In this document: in pieces, positions 6,071 through 21,454 of the stretch
How the letters are laid out: each line of letters begins with the position of its first letter
How positions within the stretch are numbered: the stretch's first letter is position 1
IMG/VR virus record: IMGVR_UViG_2541047894_000004
Reading direction: 5' to 3' (one strand)
DNA: 35,499 nucleotides
Source: a virus
Taxonomy: Duplodnaviria > Heunggongvirae > Uroviricota > Caudoviricetes
Program-made: the position numbers and the translations under genes
The notes under the pieces: model-generated
Told to the model about the DNA's origin: nothing
Databases searched by the model: none
What the model saw: only the letters and a program-made list of their open reading frames with translations

Positions 6071-6114
6071 TTGAAATTAATCGTGCCGGACTGTTTTGTT
6101 CGGTATCAGTTAAA

Positions 6115-6558
6115 TGTAACGCTTACAGCGTTACAAGGTGAAAACAATATGGCTTCAAACTGGATAAAGCTCGAGGTTATTACGCCGGATAAGCCGGAAA
6201 TATTCAGGCTTGCTGAGATTCTGAATATTGATCCAGATGCCGCATTAGGGAAAGTCATTCGCTTCTGGGCATGGGCGGATCAACAAATGATAGACGGTAA
6301 CGCAGAGTGTAACGCTCGCGGCGTTACAAAAAGTGCAATAGATCGCATCACTTTTATGGCTGGTTTTGCTGATGCGTTAATTCAGGTTGGATGGCTGGTC
6401 GAAAATAACGGTGGGCTTTCTCTACCTAACTTTGAACGTCATAACGGAAAAAGCTCTAAAAAACGGGCGATTACAAACGAGAGGGTTACAAAAATACGCG
6501 AACTGAAACGAAAAGGTAACGCTGCCAGCGTTACACAAACGGATCAAAAAGCGTTACC
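6115..6558. repeat. Ori-like array of GTAACGC/GCGTTAC palindromes and half-sites with phased A-tracts
   Basis: Palindromes TGTAACGCT-TAC-AGCGTTACA (6115-6135), TGTAACGC-TCGCG-GCGTTACA (6308-6328), GTAACGCTG-C-CAGCGTTAC (6516-6534); half-sites at 6470, 6484, 6551; A-tracts 6440-6515; GAGGAA x3 at 6560-6577. Confidence 0.5.
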
Positions 6559-6937
6559 AGAGGAAGAGGAAGAGGAAGATATAAATACTGATCTCCCCCT
6601 AAATCCCCCTCGCCAAAAACGAGCATCTAAAAAATTCGAGCCGGAGGCTATTGAGTTGCCCGATTGGTTGCCGGAAACACTCTGGCATGAGTGGGTCCGG
6701 TTCAGGCAGGCATTGCGAAAACCGATTCGAACGGAGCAGGGCGCTAACGGGGCGATACGGGAACTGGAAAAATTCCGCCAGCAGGGTTTTACCCCTGAGC
6801 AGGTGATTCGACATAGCATCGCCAATGAATACCAGGGCTTGTTCGCGCCGAAAGGTGTTCGGCCTGAGACGTTGCTCAGACAGGTTAACACTGTCTCGTT
6901 GCCGGACAGTGCGATCCCGCCAGGCTTCAGGGGGTAA
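6149..6937 (+). CDS. ydaU: Replication initiator O-like protein (YdaU-like); start taken at the ATG at 6149 (AAGGTG RBS)
   Basis: Sits just upstream of the DnaC-like gene; carries internal palindromic repeats and an acidic EEEEEED linker as in lambda O; the ORF-track start at 6071 is TTG. Confidence 0.75.
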   Translation: MASNWIKLEVITPDKPEIFRLAEILNIDPDAALGKVIRFWAWADQQMIDGNAECNARGVTKSAIDRITFMAGFADALIQVGWLVENNGGLSLPNFERHNGKSSKKRAITNERVTKIRELKRKGNAASVTQTDQKALPEEEEEEDINTDLPLNPPRQKRASKKFEPEAIELPDWLPETLWHEWVRFRQALRKPIRTEQGANGAIRELEKFRQQGFTPEQVIRHSIANEYQGLFAPKGVRPETLLRQVNTVSLPDSAIPPGFRG

Positions 6938-6943
6938 CGAACC

Positions 6944-7690
6944 ATGAAAAATATTGCGACAGGCGGCGTTCTGGAACGCATCCGCCGACTGACCCCGCCA
7001 CATGTAACCGCCCCATTCAGAACGGTAGCGGAGTGGCGCGAGTGGCAACTTGCTGAAGGCCAGAAACGTAGCGAGGAGATCAACCGCCTGAATCGCCAGT
7101 TGCGGGTGGAAAAAATTCTGAATCGCTCAGGCATCCAGCCGTTGCACCGTAAATGCTCGTTTGCGAATTACCAGGTGCAGAACGACGGTCAGCGATACGC
7201 GTTGAGCCAGGCGAAATCTATCGCTGATGAACTGATGACCGGGTGTACAAATTTTGCGTTCAGCGGAAAACCTGGTACCGGAAAAAACCATCTGGCGGCG
7301 GCTATCGGGAATCGCCTGCTGAAAGATGGCCAGACAGTGATTGTGGTTACCGTGGCTGATGTCATGAGTGCTCTACACGCCAGCTATGACGACGGGCAAT
7401 CAGGCGAAAAATTTTTGCGGGAACTGTGCCAAGTGGATCTGCTGGTTCTTGATGAAATTGGCATTCAGCGCGAGACAAAAAACGAGCAGGTGGTGCTGCA
7501 CCAGATTGTTGATCGCCGGACAGCGTCGATGCGCAGCGTGGGGATACTGACAAACCTGAACTATGAGGCCATGAAAACATTGCTCGGCGAGCGGATTATG
7601 GATCGCATGACCATGAACGGCGGGCGATGGGTGAATTTTAACTGGGAGAGCTGGCGTCCGAATGTCGTCCAGCCAGGAATTGCGAAGTGA
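6944..7690 (+). CDS. ydaV: DnaC-like helicase loader, AAA+ ATPase (YdaV-like)
   Basis: Walker [11 protein letters not shown], Walker [10 protein letters not shown]; follows the O-like gene. Confidence 0.9.
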
Positions 7691-9069: not shown

Positions 9070-9756
9070 ATGACCCCAATAAAAATATTTATGACTATTG
9101 CTGATTTCAAACGGCCTAAATTGGAGCTCCCAAACGGGGCAAACAAACTACTACTGCACTCTTGCTGTGCTCCATGTTCCGGTGAAGTGATGGAGGCGCT
9201 TCAGGCCTCGGGAATCGACTATACCATCTTTTTCTACAACCCGAACATTCATCCTCAGAAAGAGTATTTAATTCGTAAGGATGAGAATATTCGCTTTGCT
9301 GAACAACACGGCGTGCCATTTATTGATGCTGATTACGACACAGACAACTGGTTTGAACGTGCCAAAGGAATGGAATGGGAGCCCGAGAGGGGGATCCGTT
9401 GTACCATGTGTTTTGACATGCGTTTTGAGCGGACAGCGCTGTACGCTGCTGAAAATGGTTTCAGTGTGATCAGCAGTTCACTGGGCATTTCACGCTGGAA
9501 AAATATGCAGCAGGTTAACGACTGTGGGCGGCGAGCCGTCGCGCATTATCCGGGCATGGTGTACTGGGATTATAACTGGCGCAAGCAGGGCGGCTCGTCC
9601 CGCATGATTGAAATCAGCAAGCGCGAAAAATTCTATCAGCAGGAATATTGTGGCTGTGTGTATTCTCTGCGCGATACCAATCTACACCGCAAATCTCAGG
9701 GACGCCCTCTTATCAAAATTGGTCAACTCCACTACGGTAAAGAAGAGAAGGAGTGA
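9070..9756 (+). CDS. queH: QueH-like epoxyqueuosine reductase (DUF208 family)
   Basis: [20 protein letters not shown], EPERGxRC and C-terminal YCGC motifs as recalled for QueH/DUF208; own upstream region and downstream terminator. Confidence 0.72.
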
Positions 9757-10538: not shown

Positions 10539-10556
10539 TGATGGGTATTGTGCTCT

Positions 10557-11042
10557 ATGGCTGAGATTGTTGAAGGAGTGCACTACCTTTCGGTTGATGA
10601 TCTTACTGAAATTAATCGCCTTTTAATTGAGCTTCAAACACCAGATGAACCTGTTGGTGTGCTGAGTGTTGATAATTTAAGTTCTTCTCAGTCTCGTCCC
10701 AGTATGGTTCGATGGTATGAGCAAACCAACGACATGTTTGTACTGGCATCGGTATTGATTGAAAGTCTGATTCAGAATCATCCATTTGCCAATGCAAACA
10801 AGCGCACAGCAATGATGGCTGGTGCGGTTTTTTTATTGTTAAATGGATACGAATTAACCGCACCAGGCGATGAAGTTGTGGAGATGGCTGAGGGGCTGGC
10901 CTGTAAAATTTATACACGAGAAGAGCTTGAAAATTGGTTGTGTTATTGGTCTCGTGCGTATGACAGTCGGGAATTATGTAAAACAGGCGCAACTATTGTT
11001 TTGTATGAAACTATCAAGCTTAAAATAGAACAGCAAAACTAA
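10557..11042 (+). CDS. doc: Doc-family toxin (Fic/Doc fold), 161 aa
   Basis: HPFANANKR fits the Doc signature H-x-F-x-(D/N)-(A/G)-N-K-R; small gene immediately upstream; alternative TTG start at 10548. Confidence 0.78.
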   Translation: MAEIVEGVHYLSVDDLTEINRLLIELQTPDEPVGVLSVDNLSSSQSRPSMVRWYEQTNDMFVLASVLIESLIQNHPFANANKRTAMMAGAVFLLLNGYELTAPGDEVVEMAEGLACKIYTREELENWLCYWSRAYDSRELCKTGATIVLYETIKLKIEQQN

Positions 11043-17170: not shown

Positions 17171-17962
17171 ATGAGCGAGAAATTGAAGATCGTCTATCGC
17201 CCTTTACAAGAACTGTCTCCGTATGCACACAACGCCAGGACACACAGCCCTGAGCAGGTGGCACAACTGGTAGAAAGCATTAAGCAATTCGGCTGGACTA
17301 ATCCGGTGCTGATTGATGAAAAGGGCGAAATTATTGCTGGTCACGGTCGCGTTATGGCGGCTGAAGTGCTCAAAATGGATTCCATTCCGGTCATCGTTCT
17401 GTCTGGTTTGATGGATGATCAGAAAAAGGCGTACCGCCTGGCAGATAATCGCCTGCCGATGAATGCTGGCTGGGATGAAGATCTGTTACGGATGGAGCTG
17501 TCGGACCTAATCAATGCTGATTTTGATGTCTCCCTGACAGGCTTCAGCCCGACAGAAATTGATGAACTGTTGACGGATGTTTTGCCCGGTACAGAAAATG
17601 AGGAGGAGCCGTATACGACGAAAATTGATACGCCTGTTTATGAGCCGTCGGGCGGTAAACCGGATATCAGTGAACTGTACGACGATACGAAAACTCAGGA
17701 GCTGATCAGCCGGATACGTTCGGCGTCTCTTGAGCCTGATATTGAGAAATTCCTCCTGTGTGCGGCAGAACGTCACACGGTGTTTAATTTCAGCAGAATT
17801 GCGGACTATTACGCTCACGCCCCCGCTGAAATTCAGTGTTTTTTCGAGGAGTCGGCGCTGGTGATCATTGATTATCAGCAGGCTATTGAAAATGGATTTG
17901 TCCGGATGACGCAGCGCATGGTGGAGATCATGCATGGTGGTGAGGAGGAGGAATATGCGTGA
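17171..17962 (+). CDS. ParB-like nuclease domain (ParB/Srx fold) protein, 263 aa
   Basis: N-terminal ParB-like motifs (YAHNARTHSPEQV..., GHGRVMAA); acidic C-terminus; located upstream of terminase. Confidence 0.75.
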   Translation: MSEKLKIVYRPLQELSPYAHNARTHSPEQVAQLVESIKQFGWTNPVLIDEKGEIIAGHGRVMAAEVLKMDSIPVIVLSGLMDDQKKAYRLADNRLPMNAGWDEDLLRMELSDLINADFDVSLTGFSPTEIDELLTDVLPGTENEEEPYTTKIDTPVYEPSGGKPDISELYDDTKTQELISRIRSASLEPDIEKFLLCAAERHTVFNFSRIADYYAHAPAEIQCFFEESALVIIDYQQAIENGFVRMTQRMVEIMHGGEEEEYA

Positions 17963-18887
17963 TGATTTTTGCGCCTTTATTCTGACTCACGGGCGACCGG
18001 ACAAAGTTCTGACTTACCGGACGTTGCGTCGTGCTGGCTATACCGGGAAAATTTTTATCGTTGTTGATGATGAAGATAAGACACGGCATCAGTACATGGC
18101 TGAATTTGGTGAACAGGTGCTGGTGTTTTCCAAAGCCGATATCGCCAGTCGTTTTGACGAAGCCGATAATTTCGGTGACCGCCGCTCAATTTTTTACGCC
18201 CGTAATGCCTGTTTCGACCTGGCAAAACTGGTCGGGTGTAAATACTTCATTCAGCTCGATGATGATTATCACGAGTTCCAGTTTCGGGTGGATCGCAACT
18301 ATGACCAGGCCTATTTTCCGATAAGGAAACTGGATGCGATCCTTTCTGAAATGCTGGCGTACTACGAATCAATACCTGCTCTTTCCATCGCTATGTCGCA
18401 GGGCGGGGATTTTCTTGGTGACAATGGCGGCCATGCTTCGTGGGTAAAACGCAAGGCAATGAACAGCTTTATCTGTTCGGTTGACCGACCGTTCTCATTC
18501 ATGGGGCGCATTAACGAGGATGTGAATACGTACACGAATCTCGGTCGCCGTGGTGAATTGTTTATGACGATCGGTGCTGTCCAGTTAGGGCAGAAACAGA
18601 CGCAGAAAAACAGCGGCGGAATGACCGAGCTGTATCTGGATTCCGGAACCTACGTTAAAAGTTTTTACTCCGTCATGTATGCGCCGTCGTGCGTAAAAAT
18701 CTCACTGATGGGAGCCAGCCATAAACGCATTCACCATCAGGTCACCTGGAACAACGCTGCAGTAAAAATCCTTCACGAAAAATACAGGAAGAAGACACCC
18801 TGCATATCAATAGGGGTGACAAATGATTCCGTATTCGAAAGTCGAGTCTCTGGCAGCGTGCCGGATGACTGCACAACAAATCGCTGA
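17955..18887 (+). CDS. Hypothetical protein, about 310 aa, possible GT-A-fold nucleotide-sugar transferase
   Basis: GAGGAGGAGG RBS; KIFIVVDDEDK and QLDDDYHE motifs resemble GT-A DxD signatures; assignment is tentative. Confidence 0.55.
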   Translation: MRDDFCAFILTHGRPDKVLTYRTLRRAGYTGKIFIVVDDEDKTRHQYMAEFGEQVLVFSKADIASRFDEADNFGDRRSIFYARNACFDLAKLVGCKYFIQLDDDYHEFQFRVDRNYDQAYFPIRKLDAILSEMLAYYESIPALSIAMSQGGDFLGDNGGHASWVKRKAMNSFICSVDRPFSFMGRINEDVNTYTNLGRRGELFMTIGAVQLGQKQTQKNSGGMTELYLDSGTYVKSFYSVMYAPSCVKISLMGASHKRIHHQVTWNNAAVKILHEKYRKKTPCISIGVTNDSVFESRVSGSVPDDCTTNR

Positions 18888-19074
18888 CGTTCTGGATGTT
18901 GATCTGAACCGACTGAAAGAAAATCGGGAAGCAATGACAGATTTTTATGCGGCCATCCGTAAGGGCAGAGCGAAAGGTGAAGCCGAGTTACGGGCGGCAT
19001 TGTTTAAGCTTGCCAGAAAAGGGGATGCCTTTGCTCTGCGCGAACTACTCAGGGTGGATAAAAATCAGGACTAA
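18823..19074 (+). CDS. Hypothetical small protein, 83 aa, upstream of terS
   Basis: AGGGG RBS; overlaps the 3' end of the preceding gene by 65 nt; basic C-terminal half. Confidence 0.4.
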   Translation: MIPYSKVESLAACRMTAQQIADVLDVDLNRLKENREAMTDFYAAIRKGRAKGEAELRAALFKLARKGDAFALRELLRVDKNQD

Positions 19075-19077
19075 CTG

Positions 19078-20172
19078 ATGAGCAGACCGGACTGGGGGGC
19101 GTTGCAGCAGGAGTATATTGCTGAATACACCCGCTCCGGTATATCTCCGGTGGCATGGTGTGAAGCAAGGGGACTGAATTACGCAACAGCCCGTCGTTAC
19201 ATCAAAAAACCTCCGAAAAATGCGCAGACAGAAATGCGCAAAACTGCGCAAAAAAGTGCGCAGAAAAAATCTGCGCAGACTGCACAAAAGCGGAACGAAA
19301 AATCTCAGGAAAAAAAGCCAGTATTCGATGCGGGCCTGAATGAGGGCGACGCGGAGGAATTTTCGTTCTGTCCCGATGAATTCGGCATTTCTGACCAGCA
19401 GGCTAAGTTTGCGATGCTTGTTGCTCAGGGGAAAAAGCCGACAGAGGCGTACCGACTAGCCGGTTATGAGGGGCAAGGTGCGACAGCTAACAGCAACGCC
19501 AGTCGTATGCTTAGAAATGCCAGGGTTTTTCGCGCTATCAGCTACTTCCGCAATCAGTACCAGAAACGCTATACCGCAGACCTGGATTTACTGGTGAGTC
19601 AGTTGATGGCCATTGTCCTGGCCGACCCCAATCAGCTTGCACAATTTCGCCGTGTTAACTGCCGTTATTGCTGGGGCGAGAATCATCTCTACCAGTGGCG
19701 CGATATAGCAGAATTCGACAAGGCAGCGGCGCAGGCTTCCAGAGATGGCAAACCCGAACCGGAATATGGAGGCCTCGGCTTTGTTGATAACGCCATACCC
19801 AATCCGGACTGCCCGAAGTGCTGCGGTGAGGGAACGGGACAGCTTTATATGGCTGATACCACTCTGCTTGATGGGGATGCGCGGCAATTATATGCAGGGG
19901 CAAAACTCGGAAAATTCGGCGTTGAGATCCTGCTGGAGGATAAGGCTGCCGCCCGGCGTGAATTGTTGCGTTTGCTTTCTGCTGGTGGGGCTTTATGTGC
20001 AGATAAGCGGCTACAGGAACTGGAAATTGAACGGCGCAGAATGGAAAACCAGAAGCTGCGCAAAGAGATCGAAACGGTGGAAGATAATGAACATCCCCAG
20101 CCTGTGGCGATCAATATTAATGTGGTTGATGCCAGAGTAAGGAGTGATGAAGATGATCTCTCCGACGCTTAA
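19078..20172 (+). CDS. terS: Terminase small subunit candidate, 364 aa
   Basis: Immediately upstream of and overlapping terL; N-terminal HTH-like region; contains an internal TGCGCA repeat array. Confidence 0.65.
   Translation: MSRPDWGALQQEYIAEYTRSGISPVAWCEARGLNYATARRYIKKPPKNAQTEMRKTAQKSAQKKSAQTAQKRNEKSQEKKPVFDAGLNEGDAEEFSFCPDEFGISDQQAKFAMLVAQGKKPTEAYRLAGYEGQGATANSNASRMLRNARVFRAISYFRNQYQKRYTADLDLLVSQLMAIVLADPNQLAQFRRVNCRYCWGENHLYQWRDIAEFDKAAAQASRDGKPEPEYGGLGFVDNAIPNPDCPKCCGEGTGQLYMADTTLLDGDARQLYAGAKLGKFGVEILLEDKAAARRELLRLLSAGGALCADKRLQELEIERRRMENQKLRKEIETVEDNEHPQPVAININVVDARVRSDEDDLSDA
19221..19286 (+). repeat. Array of five TGCGCA hexamers plus one degenerate copy within terS
   Basis: TGCGCA at 19221, 19235, 19245, 19257, 19272 and TGCACA at 19281, spaced 10-15 bp; encodes the low-complexity peptide NAQTEMRKTAQKSAQKKSAQTAQK. 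Confidence 0.6.
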
Positions 20173-21454
20173 TGTGCCTCAGGCGCGATTTCTTTCAATG
20201 CCCCATAAATTTAAAGCCTATATTGCTGGTTTTGGCTCGGGCAAAACATGGGTTGGGTGTGGCGGCATATGCAAGGGGATTTGGGAGCATCCAGGTATAA
20301 ATCAGGGATATTTTGCGCCAACGTATCCCCAAATTCGCGATATTTTTTACCCTACAGTGGAAGAAGTTGCTGCTGACTGGGGATTGAACGTAAAAATTAA
20401 TGAGGGAAATAAAGAGGTTCACTTTTATTACGGACGCCAGTATCGGGGAACCACTATCTGCAGATCGATGGAGAAGCCACAAACGATCGTCGGTTTCAAA
20501 ATTGGTAATGCGCTGGTGGATGAACTGGACATTTTGCCGAAGGAAAAAGCCAGAACGGCGTGGCGCAAGATAATTGCGCGTATGCGTTATAAGATTGATG
20601 GACTTCGCAACGGTATTGACGTTACAACCACGCCGGAAGGATTCAAATTTGTCTACGAGCAGTTTGTTAAAGCCGTGCGTGAAAAAACAGAGCTGGCCTC
20701 ACTGTATGGTCTGGTGCAGGCATCTACTTTCGATAATGAAAAGAACCTGCCAGCAGATTACATTCCTTCGCTTCTTGAATCATACCCTCCAGAGCTGATT
20801 AAAGCCTATCTTCGAGGACAGTTTACTAACCTGACAAGTGGTACTGTTTACCATCAGTTTGACCGGAAACTGAATAATTGCGAAGAAGTGGAGCAGCCAG
20901 GGGAGCCGATTTATATTGGGATGGATTTTAACGTTGGAAAGATGGCGGGGATCGTCCATGTGCTGCGTTTGGGGCTTCCATGTGCGGTAACTGAAATCAT
21001 CAATGCCTACGATACGCCGGATATGATCCGCATCATTAAAGAACGCTTCTGGCTGTATGACGGGAATGATTACCGGAAAGTGAGGGAGATTTATATTTAT
21101 CCAGATGCTTCCGGAGATTCCAGAAAATCAAGTAACGCAAGTACGACGGATATAGCCCAGCTTAAGCAGGCTGGTTTTAACGTTGTGGTGAACAGCTCGA
21201 ACCCGCCAGTAAAAGATCGCGTTAACTCAATGAATGCAATGTTCTGCAATGCCAATGGTGAGCGTCGCTATAAAGTTAATGTGAAGCGTTGTCCGGTATA
21301 TGCCGAATCTCTGGAGCAACAGGTCTGGGATGATAAGGGGGAGCCTGATAAAAAATCTGGCAATGATCACCCGAATGATGCCGGAGGTTATTTCATCGTT
21401 AAGCAATTCCCTATTGTCAAACCGACCGGAAGAGTCACATCACTTCGGATTTAA
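20153..21454 (+). CDS. terL: Terminase large subunit
   Basis: Walker A-like AGFGSGKT near the N-terminus; AAGGAG RBS 8 nt before the ATG at 20153; position between terS and portal. Confidence 0.85.
   Translation: MISPTLNVPQARFLSMPHKFKAYIAGFGSGKTWVGCGGICKGIWEHPGINQGYFAPTYPQIRDIFYPTVEEVAADWGLNVKINEGNKEVHFYYGRQYRGTTICRSMEKPQTIVGFKIGNALVDELDILPKEKARTAWRKIIARMRYKIDGLRNGIDVTTTPEGFKFVYEQFVKAVREKTELASLYGLVQASTFDNEKNLPADYIPSLLESYPPELIKAYLRGQFTNLTSGTVYHQFDRKLNNCEEVEQPGEPIYIGMDFNVGKMAGIVHVLRLGLPCAVTEIINAYDTPDMIRIIKERFWLYDGNDYRKVREIYIYPDASGDSRKSSNASTTDIAQLKQAGFNVVVNSSNPPVKDRVNSMNAMFCNANGERRYKVNVKRCPVYAESLEQQVWDDKGEPDKKSGNDHPNDAGGYFIVKQFPIVKPTGRVTSLRI

Follow-up and report, generated by a model that had tools for sequence, protein, structure and literature searches.

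The 35,499-nucleotide DNA of the caudoviricete virus record IMGVR_UViG_2541047894_000004, referred to below in its whole length as the window, represents a complete Rac-type lambdoid prophage of E. coli with int, a recET remnant, sieB, the repressor, replication, Q and lysis regions, and trkG. Inside its terS gene, which codes for the small terminase subunit (TerS), lies a dense array of the palindromic hexamer TGCGCA, and we propose that this array is probably where the terminase recognizes a headful-packaging pac site of the prophage, being read by an extra helix-turn-helix (HTH) domain at the N-terminus of TerS itself. An initial annotation made from the letters of the window had suggested a pac or terminase recognition site at this place, and the suggestion gains support from signatures of selection on the DNA, from the linkage of the array to the HTH, from the covariation of HTH residue 39 with the repeated word, and from the homology and common layout with the PacA protein and pac site of phage P1, all of which are drawn from sequence comparison.

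The hexamer array in terS

The array covers terS nucleotides (nt) 144-209, i.e. codons 48-70, and comprises, as initially annotated, five copies of TGCGCA and one of TGCACA in 66 bp (19221-19286; word positions in Table 1). The encoded peptide, PKNAQTEMRKTAQKSAQKKSAQTAQK, likewise bears out the description of a low-complexity Lys/Gln/Ala-rich linker. The copies are set among A-rich spacers with the consensus AAA(C)TGCGCA(A/G)AA and use two reading frames in the window and three in the family as a whole. A count of TGCGCA over the entire window gave 19 copies against 14.9 expected; hence the word as such is not enriched and only its clustering is exceptional. No second pair of TGCGCA within 66 nt occurs anywhere in the window outside the array, and none of 200 simulated windows (Markov-1 model) held a complex, non-trivial hexamer at five copies per 66 bp, the maxima being two to four. 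The clustering is far beyond chance.

The spacing had been described as roughly one copy per helical turn. The copies do lie close together, at 14, 10, 12, 15 and 9 bp with a mean of 12, but such spacings imply that they are not helically phased, and the common values across the 77 non-redundant loci on which our density, spacing and codon statistics are based are 7, 9, 12 and 14 bp, so that the helical description is loosely true at best. The 5' region of the window's terS is identical to that of E. coli 042. The frame of its second hexamer is shared by 63 of the 344 hexamers of the Arg (TGCGCA) class, and this copy is absent from some E. coli alleles, which are M-C-K variants.

Conservation of the array and selection at the DNA level

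Our comparison set of about 250 related loci drew on variants within E. coli, on phage isolates, on IMG/VR contigs, among which relatives number about 600, and on a single genome for each species. Among complete E. coli genomes, about 17% (914 of 5,426) contain the Rac-type version alone, and related cassettes occur in prophages of Klebsiella, Proteus, Providencia, Yersinia, Pantoea, Pasteurella, Aeromonas and Vibrio. Even at 36-42% identity to the TerS of the window, proteins such as those of Klebsiella ST846-OXA48phi9.2 and ST16-OXA48phi5.1, Escherichia PHB10 and the E. coli 'mussel' prophage carry three to six TGCGCA at the same place (terS nt ~135-205). When terS nt 100-330 is set against the other ~270 kb of these 77 loci, the density of the cognate hexamer is 40-fold higher in the former. 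In many relatives, including the Klebsiella type (+138-196 and +348-398), the ~240-residue type, Pasteurella Pmp11 and Vibrio, a second cluster follows 100-170 bp downstream of the first.

Codon usage within the array points to the DNA as the object of this conservation. The hexamers of the 77 loci are distributed over the three reading frames as 262, 63 and 19 copies, encoding X-Ala-Gln, [Leu/Val/Met]-Arg or Cys-Ala, respectively. The linker Ala of Ala-Gln/His is encoded by GCG in 248 of 267 cases, as against 55 of 100 elsewhere in TerS, and the silent third base of the codon before it is T in 254 of 267, as against 32 of 100; the residue specified by that preceding codon nevertheless varies over 14 amino acids. 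Fixed silent sites beside variable residues are the opposite of what constraint on the protein would produce and hence speak for selection at the DNA level. In the same vein, the DNA word is kept although the linker peptide changes from lineage to lineage (AQ, LR, CA, AN or CE repeats), and the array has decayed in the terS pseudogenes L137, L164 and L168 and in the deletion fusion of Rac-SA53. Taken together, these patterns argue that selection acts on the array as DNA and that it is not a by-product of the peptide.

In Rac-SA53 (L006 2417-3445) the terS gene is annotated as a gpO-terS deletion fusion that has lost the HTH and the first hexamers, and the leftover copies are mutated to TTCGCA, TGCGCT and TGCCCA.

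That the repeat might merely reflect a low-complexity Ala-Gln/Lys linker or replication slippage, with no function of the DNA, is suggested by the probably disordered nature of the encoded segment, by the variable copy number among E. coli alleles, which show small in-frame deletions, and by the weak periodicity detected with Tandem Repeats Finder. We nonetheless consider this very improbable, given that the hexamer is retained in three frames with different peptides (AN and CE in the other word class), that silent positions are fixed while residues vary, that the spacers differ in both length and sequence, and that the word covaries with an HTH residue and decays in pseudogenes.

Likewise, the palindromic copies could act through secondary structure, either as mRNA hairpins modulating translation or as intrinsic terminators against antisense transcription. 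Neighboring copies do form terminator-like hairpins on the minus strand, and the RNA of the window array folds with z-scores of -4.7 and -4.6, that of the array of Klebsiella locus L007 with -3.4 and -3.2. Any repeated palindrome, however, folds in this manner, and the equivalently placed TGCGAA array of Pasteurella Pmp11, in which all copies are direct, folds worse than shuffled sequences (z +1.5 and +2.2). Structure is hence not the conserved property but a side effect of repeating a palindrome; as neither the pairing partners nor the loop sizes are conserved either, we hold a role through hairpins to be highly improbable.

Linkage of the array to an N-terminal HTH domain

All the TerS proteins compared begin with a conserved 45-residue domain, MAKPDWGALQ..FL..H...GISPKDWCEAQGLNY.TARRYIKK, which in the window TerS lies ahead of the Terminase_2 domain. 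A model of TerS obtained with AlphaFold2 (AF2) from a shallow alignment had a mean predicted local distance difference test (pLDDT) score of 49.7; within it, residues 1-45 (pLDDT 74-84) form helices at 6-20, 24-30 and from 35 onward, and residues 99-160 (pLDDT 77-91), corresponding to the canonical TerS DNA-binding domain, are modeled with confidence. The model thus lends moderate support to the view that residues 1-45 adopt an HTH fold with residue 39 in the third helix, and the low confidence of the segment encoded by the array would fit a flexible tether. A sequence search of the PDB with the HTH profile returned nothing meaningful, and Pfam models matched the isolated HTH only below threshold (HTH_23 and HTH_29).

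The relationship of this domain became apparent in profile comparisons: a profile-profile alignment (hhalign) with PacA residues 1-57 yielded a probability of 93.3% (E 2.8e-7) over 39 columns corresponding to PacA residues 3-41, residues 1-91 of the window TerS match phrog_1711, the P1 PacA family (E 4.9e-6), and P1 PacA in turn matches phrog_370, which contains the RothC-type TerS (E 1.9e-4). Pairwise BLASTP alone is weak here (window HTH versus PacA, E 0.12). Based on the profile matches we conclude that the N-terminal HTH of TerS is, as judged by sequence, homologous to the N-terminus of P1 PacA.

The array accompanies the HTH even where the remainder of the protein is different. Three phages share with the window TerS the HTH alone, attached to unrelated bodies that match no Pfam model, and in each the array follows directly after the HTH: Klebsiella RothC (helix 3 AKRY) has six copies of TGCGAA, Pasteurella Pmp11 (AKRY) has nine copies of TGCGAA, encoded as Cys-Glu and Ala-Asn, and Aeromonas phiARM81mr (ARRY) has seven copies of TGCGCA. 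Conversely, a reverse scan of viral contigs for clusters of three TGCGCA found the HTH encoded within 400 bp of 77 of the 121 clusters among the matches listed, the others being mostly perfect tandem repeats or high-GC DNA; arrays without an adjacent terS that could mark satellites were absent among these matches.

This linkage bears on whether another protein might bind the hexamers, be it a host factor, the ParB_N protein (17171-17962) or the product of a small TerS-fragment-like ORF (18865-19074), the last two being encoded just upstream of terS in the Rac-type prophage. Both neighbors are missing where the array is retained in Klebsiella, Yersinia, Pasteurella, Aeromonas and other loci, and it is the TerS N-terminal HTH alone that co-occurs with the array everywhere and covaries with it, which makes a different binder improbable.

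An N-terminal HTH more divergent than those above (…SNRQIAKKHGVAESTLRKRI…) occurs in L178 (1949-2581), followed by five to six TGCGCA in the linker-coding region; the array design may thus extend beyond the family detected by our HTH profile A1.

Covariation of HTH residue 39 with the repeated word

When the most clustered hexamer past the HTH was determined de novo, it proved to be (C)TGCGCA in 101 of 103 loci with an ARRY helix 3 and TGCGAA/TTCGCA in all 15 loci with AKRY. Only column 39 of the 44 HTH columns separates the two classes, with Arg in 63 of 64 TGCGCA loci (the other has His) and Lys in 14 of 14 TGCGAA loci, and no discordant combination of helix and array was seen among intact loci carrying an array. 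A close pair from Providencia illustrates the point: L011, with Lys, and L158, with Arg, agree at 41 of 44 HTH residues and depart from each other at three in or next to helix 3, and yet every repeat is different.

The same pair reveals a mosaic junction at about nt 93, in that L011 and L158 are identical at 89 of 90 positions over nt 1-90, unrelated upstream and divergent thereafter. This indicates that helix 3 is passed on together with the array in a single linked block, around which helices 1-2 and the body of TerS are shuffled; the segment coding for helices 1-2 would then be a recombination joint between packaging cassettes. Repeated independent switches between Arg and Lys, which the scattered position of the Lys loci on the HTH tree had seemed to indicate, were dropped as an explanation in light of this junction.

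The helix 3 codons themselves resemble the cognate word (codons 37-40, 19186-19197, in the window; also L011, L012, L013 and L079): ACT-GCG-AAG, encoding T-A-K, contains TGCGAA, and ACT-GCG-CGT, encoding T-A-R in L158, contains TGCGCG. If the His of the R39H allele L079 is encoded by CAT, this allele would hold an extra exact TGCGCA.

Comparison with the pac site of phage P1

The P1 pac site, of about 161-162 bp, lies inside pacA, contains seven TGATCA/G hexamers in two groups (HEX4 and HEX3), is bound by pacase together with the host proteins IHF (integration host factor) or HU, and is regulated by Dam methylation (PMC10028697; PMC11260489). Synonymous mutation of these hexamers lowered packaging about 9-fold (PMC10028697). 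In the P1 record (pacA at L015:6530-7723), TGATCR hexamers stand at +194, 201, 213 and 228 and at +324, 336, 347 and 375, in mixed frames, past an HTH, NLNPNTARRYLR, encoded by codons ~10-44; the annotation places the cleavage sites at +276 to +285 and IHF binding at +256 to +268. The window resembles this arrangement in having a recognition subunit with a homologous N-terminal HTH, an array of 6-bp words that starts ~60-80 bp past the HTH-coding region of the same gene, and multiple copies of a single hexamer in mixed frames and at irregular spacing (five plus one copies, 9-15 bp). Many of its relatives, though not the window itself, additionally have a second, smaller cluster and are in this sense bipartite like HEX4/HEX3.

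The two systems also differ in several respects. The word is TGCGCA, or TGCGAA in sister lineages, instead of TGATCA/G, which removes the Dam site and with it a methylation switch. The rest of TerS is a Terminase_2 protein and not PacA-like, and the phage is a lambdoid prophage of siphovirus type, unlike the myovirus P1 with its plasmid prophage. Control by Dam or other methylation was rejected as a candidate, there being no GATC in or near the array and no cytosine methyltransferase gene in the window; TGCGCA contains GCGC, and no methyltransferase for GCGC is encoded in the window. Very probably, the P1-type design of a hexamer-based pac, operating without methylation and IHF control and on a different terminase, is widespread.

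A different use of the same binding sites would be autoregulation, with the hexamers serving as operators through which TerS, or a short HTH-only product, controls terS and terL from inside its own coding sequence while packaging starts elsewhere. The linkage between HTH and cognate sites fits this equally well, and a source for a short product is at hand: just past the array the slippery heptamer A_AAA_AAG lies in frame at 19311-19317 (codons E78-K79-K80), where a -1 shift would lead to a stop after 8 codons and hence to an 88-residue protein of HTH plus linker. The heptamer is confined to close relatives, being found in 31 of 32 distinct Rac-type alleles and absent from the Klebsiella type. 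Moreover, the homologous arrangement of P1 is by experiment a pac site, the array has no promoter-like site nearby, and in many lineages the second cluster, placed 100-170 bp downstream, mirrors HEX4/HEX3. Autoregulation in place of packaging is thus unlikely, although the two roles are not mutually exclusive and an operator function in addition to packaging is possible.

Comparison with other packaging signals and with iterons

The body of TerS belongs to the same Pfam family, Terminase_2, as the G1P proteins of SPP1 and SF6, whose pac (pacL box a and pacR box c) likewise overlaps the terS region and has short direct repeats in A/T-rich, bendable DNA. In TerS rings of this type several HTHs are thought to engage DNA, and the canonical Terminase_2 DNA-binding domain of SF6 is reported to be a weak, essentially sequence-independent binder that selects bendable DNA in which A/T runs are interspersed with GC (PMC4737164). 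This description also applies to the window array with its A-rich spacers. Unlike SF6, the window TerS has an additional, separate N-terminal HTH, one residue of which covaries with the repeated word, and this implies sequence-specific reading; the addition of a specific domain makes functional sense next to a canonical domain that is non-specific. In lambdoid phages with P22/Sf6-type headful packaging the signal is also embedded in the terS coding sequence (PMC11260489). The P22 site, however, is a single asymmetric, non-repeated stretch of ~22 bp in gene 3 (terS), and the TerS is of a different family, in contrast to the five to six copies of a 6-bp word and the dedicated extra HTH seen here.

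Binding sites of a protein in its own coding sequence, in the linker segment past the DNA-binding domain, are also a feature of replication initiators; at the lambda origin, the iterons lie within gene O. In line with this, irregular TGCGCA arrays occur inside initiator-like ORFs, which encode an HTH and a repeat-encoded linker, of two unrelated viral contigs (L274, 2896-2979; L202, 10434-10517). That the array in the window could consist of origin iterons that happen to fall within terS is nevertheless extremely improbable: the gene codes for a terminase subunit beside terL and the portal gene, the prophage's own replication module is 12 kb away (6071-7690), and the array is tied to the terminase HTH and not to an initiator.

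A model for pac recognition and its weak points

In light of these comparisons, we envisage that the PacA-like HTH, which would have three helices and be tethered to the Terminase_2 domain by the flexible linker, allows each subunit of a TerS oligomer to read one TGCGCA word, with Arg39 of helix 3 contacting the fifth base pair. Five to six closely placed words with bendable A-rich spacers would promote cooperative binding of several subunits; the array bound in this manner would mark phage concatemers and nucleate the terminase, with the large subunit (TerL) making the first cut nearby and headful packaging following from it. Binding, the contact of Arg39 with its base, the place of the cut, and the direction and headful nature of packaging are steps that we infer.

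The head module would be compatible with such a mechanism. As initially annotated, it is not of the lambda type, combining a Terminase_6N/6C TerL with a DUF4055 portal, a MuF protein and a P22-like coat, and lacking the lambda genes Nu1 and A. A T4-like Terminase_6 TerL, a DUF4055 portal and a MuF protein are generally associated with headful phages.

Several observations weigh against the proposed pac function. In the literature searched, data on virion ends, cleavage or binding were found neither for this phage nor for a relative with the cassette, and nothing useful emerged on the packaging of Rac-type phages or of isolated phages with the cassette; the record starts of related phages in GenBank follow an arbitrary or prophage order and are hence uninformative on ends. 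The AF2 model is poor overall, so that the placement of residue 39 in a recognition helix is just moderately supported, and the linked inheritance of helix 3 and array means that the covariation may rest on few evolutionary events. In L174 (Psychrosphaera, 1501-1800) an ARRY helix occurs without TGCGCA, and the arrays of L274 and L202 show that the word is not unique to packaging. With regard to P1, the window has a single cluster where P1 has two flanking the cleavage region, no further cluster being present in the window even when one mismatch is allowed and the next exact copy lying at +980. There is no GATC, and therefore no Dam site, in terS nt 1-520, and the IHF consensus WATCAANNNNTTR has no match, exact or with one mismatch, on either strand of 18901-19800. 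Finally, the Terminase_6N/6C TerL has no detectable kinship with PacB (BLASTP E 0.81); PacB itself matches no Pfam model.

In place of TGCGCA, L174 has about four copies of AAAGTTAAA, all in one frame (Lys-Val-Lys), which may represent a further specificity class or a mere peptide repeat.

More tentatively, and with slightly less than even confidence, we posit that helix 3 and the array constitute a compact, mobile packaging-specificity cassette, in which Arg39 reads C:G at position 5 (TGCGCA) and Lys39 reads A:T (TGCGAA). Through recombination, such a cassette would have become attached to two or more unrelated TerS bodies in Enterobacterales, Pasteurellaceae, Aeromonas and Vibrio, endowing otherwise non-specific TerS rings with specific pac recognition. 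We found no published description of TGCGCA or TGCGAA arrays as pac signals or of a PacA-like domain on a Terminase_2 TerS, in a search with most subscription journals outside its coverage.

The manner in which the small terminases of pac phages choose viral DNA is poorly understood, and the family described here provides a simple model, accessible from sequence, with a distinct HTH, 4-10 repeats of a 6-bp word, and a natural specificity switch that pairs Arg or Lys at residue 39 with C or A at position 5 of the word. Should this code hold, packaging specificity would be predictable from sequence and could be reprogrammed by changing one codon together with the array. A known pac signal would also make it possible to predict the starting points of generalized or lateral transduction, to interpret read pile-ups in viromes, and to construct packageable phagemids for these hosts, as has been done with the P1 pac (PMC10028697).

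The terminase genes and their neighborhood

Table 1. Positions in the window of terS, its domains, the individual hexamers and terL
Feature	Position	Strand	Basis or remark
terS, small terminase subunit, 364 amino acids (aa)	19078..20172	+	ORF; Pfam Terminase_2; phrog_51 'terminase small subunit', E 1.7e-76
Extra N-terminal PacA-like HTH, aa 1-45	19078..19212	+	Conserved in 10 diverse loci (alignment A1)
Codon 39 (CGT, Arg) in helix 3, putative specificity residue	19192..19194	+	Class-separating column
Lys/Gln/Ala-rich linker, aa 46-94, housing the array	19213..19359	+	AF2 pLDDT <50 for aa 48-94
Hexamer 1	19221..19226		TGCGCA, aaT GCG CAg = N-A-Q
Hexamer 2	19235..19240		TGCGCA in the other frame, aTG CGC Aaa = M-R-K
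Hexamer 3	19245..19250		TGCGCA, T-A-Q
Hexamer 4	19257..19262		TGCGCA, S-A-Q; TGCGCG in allele MRSN346647
Hexamer 5	19272..19277		TGCGCA, S-A-Q
Degenerate copy 6	19281..19286		TGCACA, T-A-Q; exact TGCGCA in many alleles, e.g. MB07081, L017, L019
Canonical Terminase_2 domain of TerS with CxxC...CxxC insertion	19441..20040	+	Pfam
terL, large terminase, presumed nuclease/motor	20144..21454	+	Pfam Terminase_6N and 6C

The Terminase_2 assignment of TerS exceeds the gathering score of PF03592 (35.1 bits versus a cut-off of 26.1; aa 122-321, E 2.5e-8). The Pfam match is interrupted by an insertion with the cysteines C195, C198, C245 and C248 (19660-19824), which are invariant in 15 aligned relatives (alignment A2); the insertion could be a zinc ribbon within a small terminase, the AF2 confidence being low in this region. 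Relatives of the TerL protein are found in siphophages of the K1H, Jersey and Dhillonvirus types.

Directly upstream of terS, within 17171-18887, the ParB_N gene is accompanied by one for a TET-associated glycosyltransferase (PF20691; phrog_842 'beta-glucosyl-HMC-alpha-glucosyltransferase'). These two genes accompany the Rac-type cassette only, and the window encodes neither a TET/JBP dioxygenase nor a cytosine methyltransferase. The small ORF between the glycosyltransferase gene and terS (69 residues, or 83 in a version starting from 18823) matches only the middle of the small-terminase family phrog_309 (profile positions 157-218 of 319, E 1e-17), and could be a remnant of a displaced terS or code for an accessory DNA-binding protein.

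Further away, the cargo genes between the replication and Q regions code for a homologue of the epoxyqueuosine reductase QueH and a Fic/DOC protein (9070-9756 and 10548-11042). Near the start of the window, a minus-strand ORF of 181 codons (1985-2530) fuses the N-terminal 45 residues of exonuclease VIII (RecE) with the central portion of RecT and is apparently what a deletion has left of the recET module.

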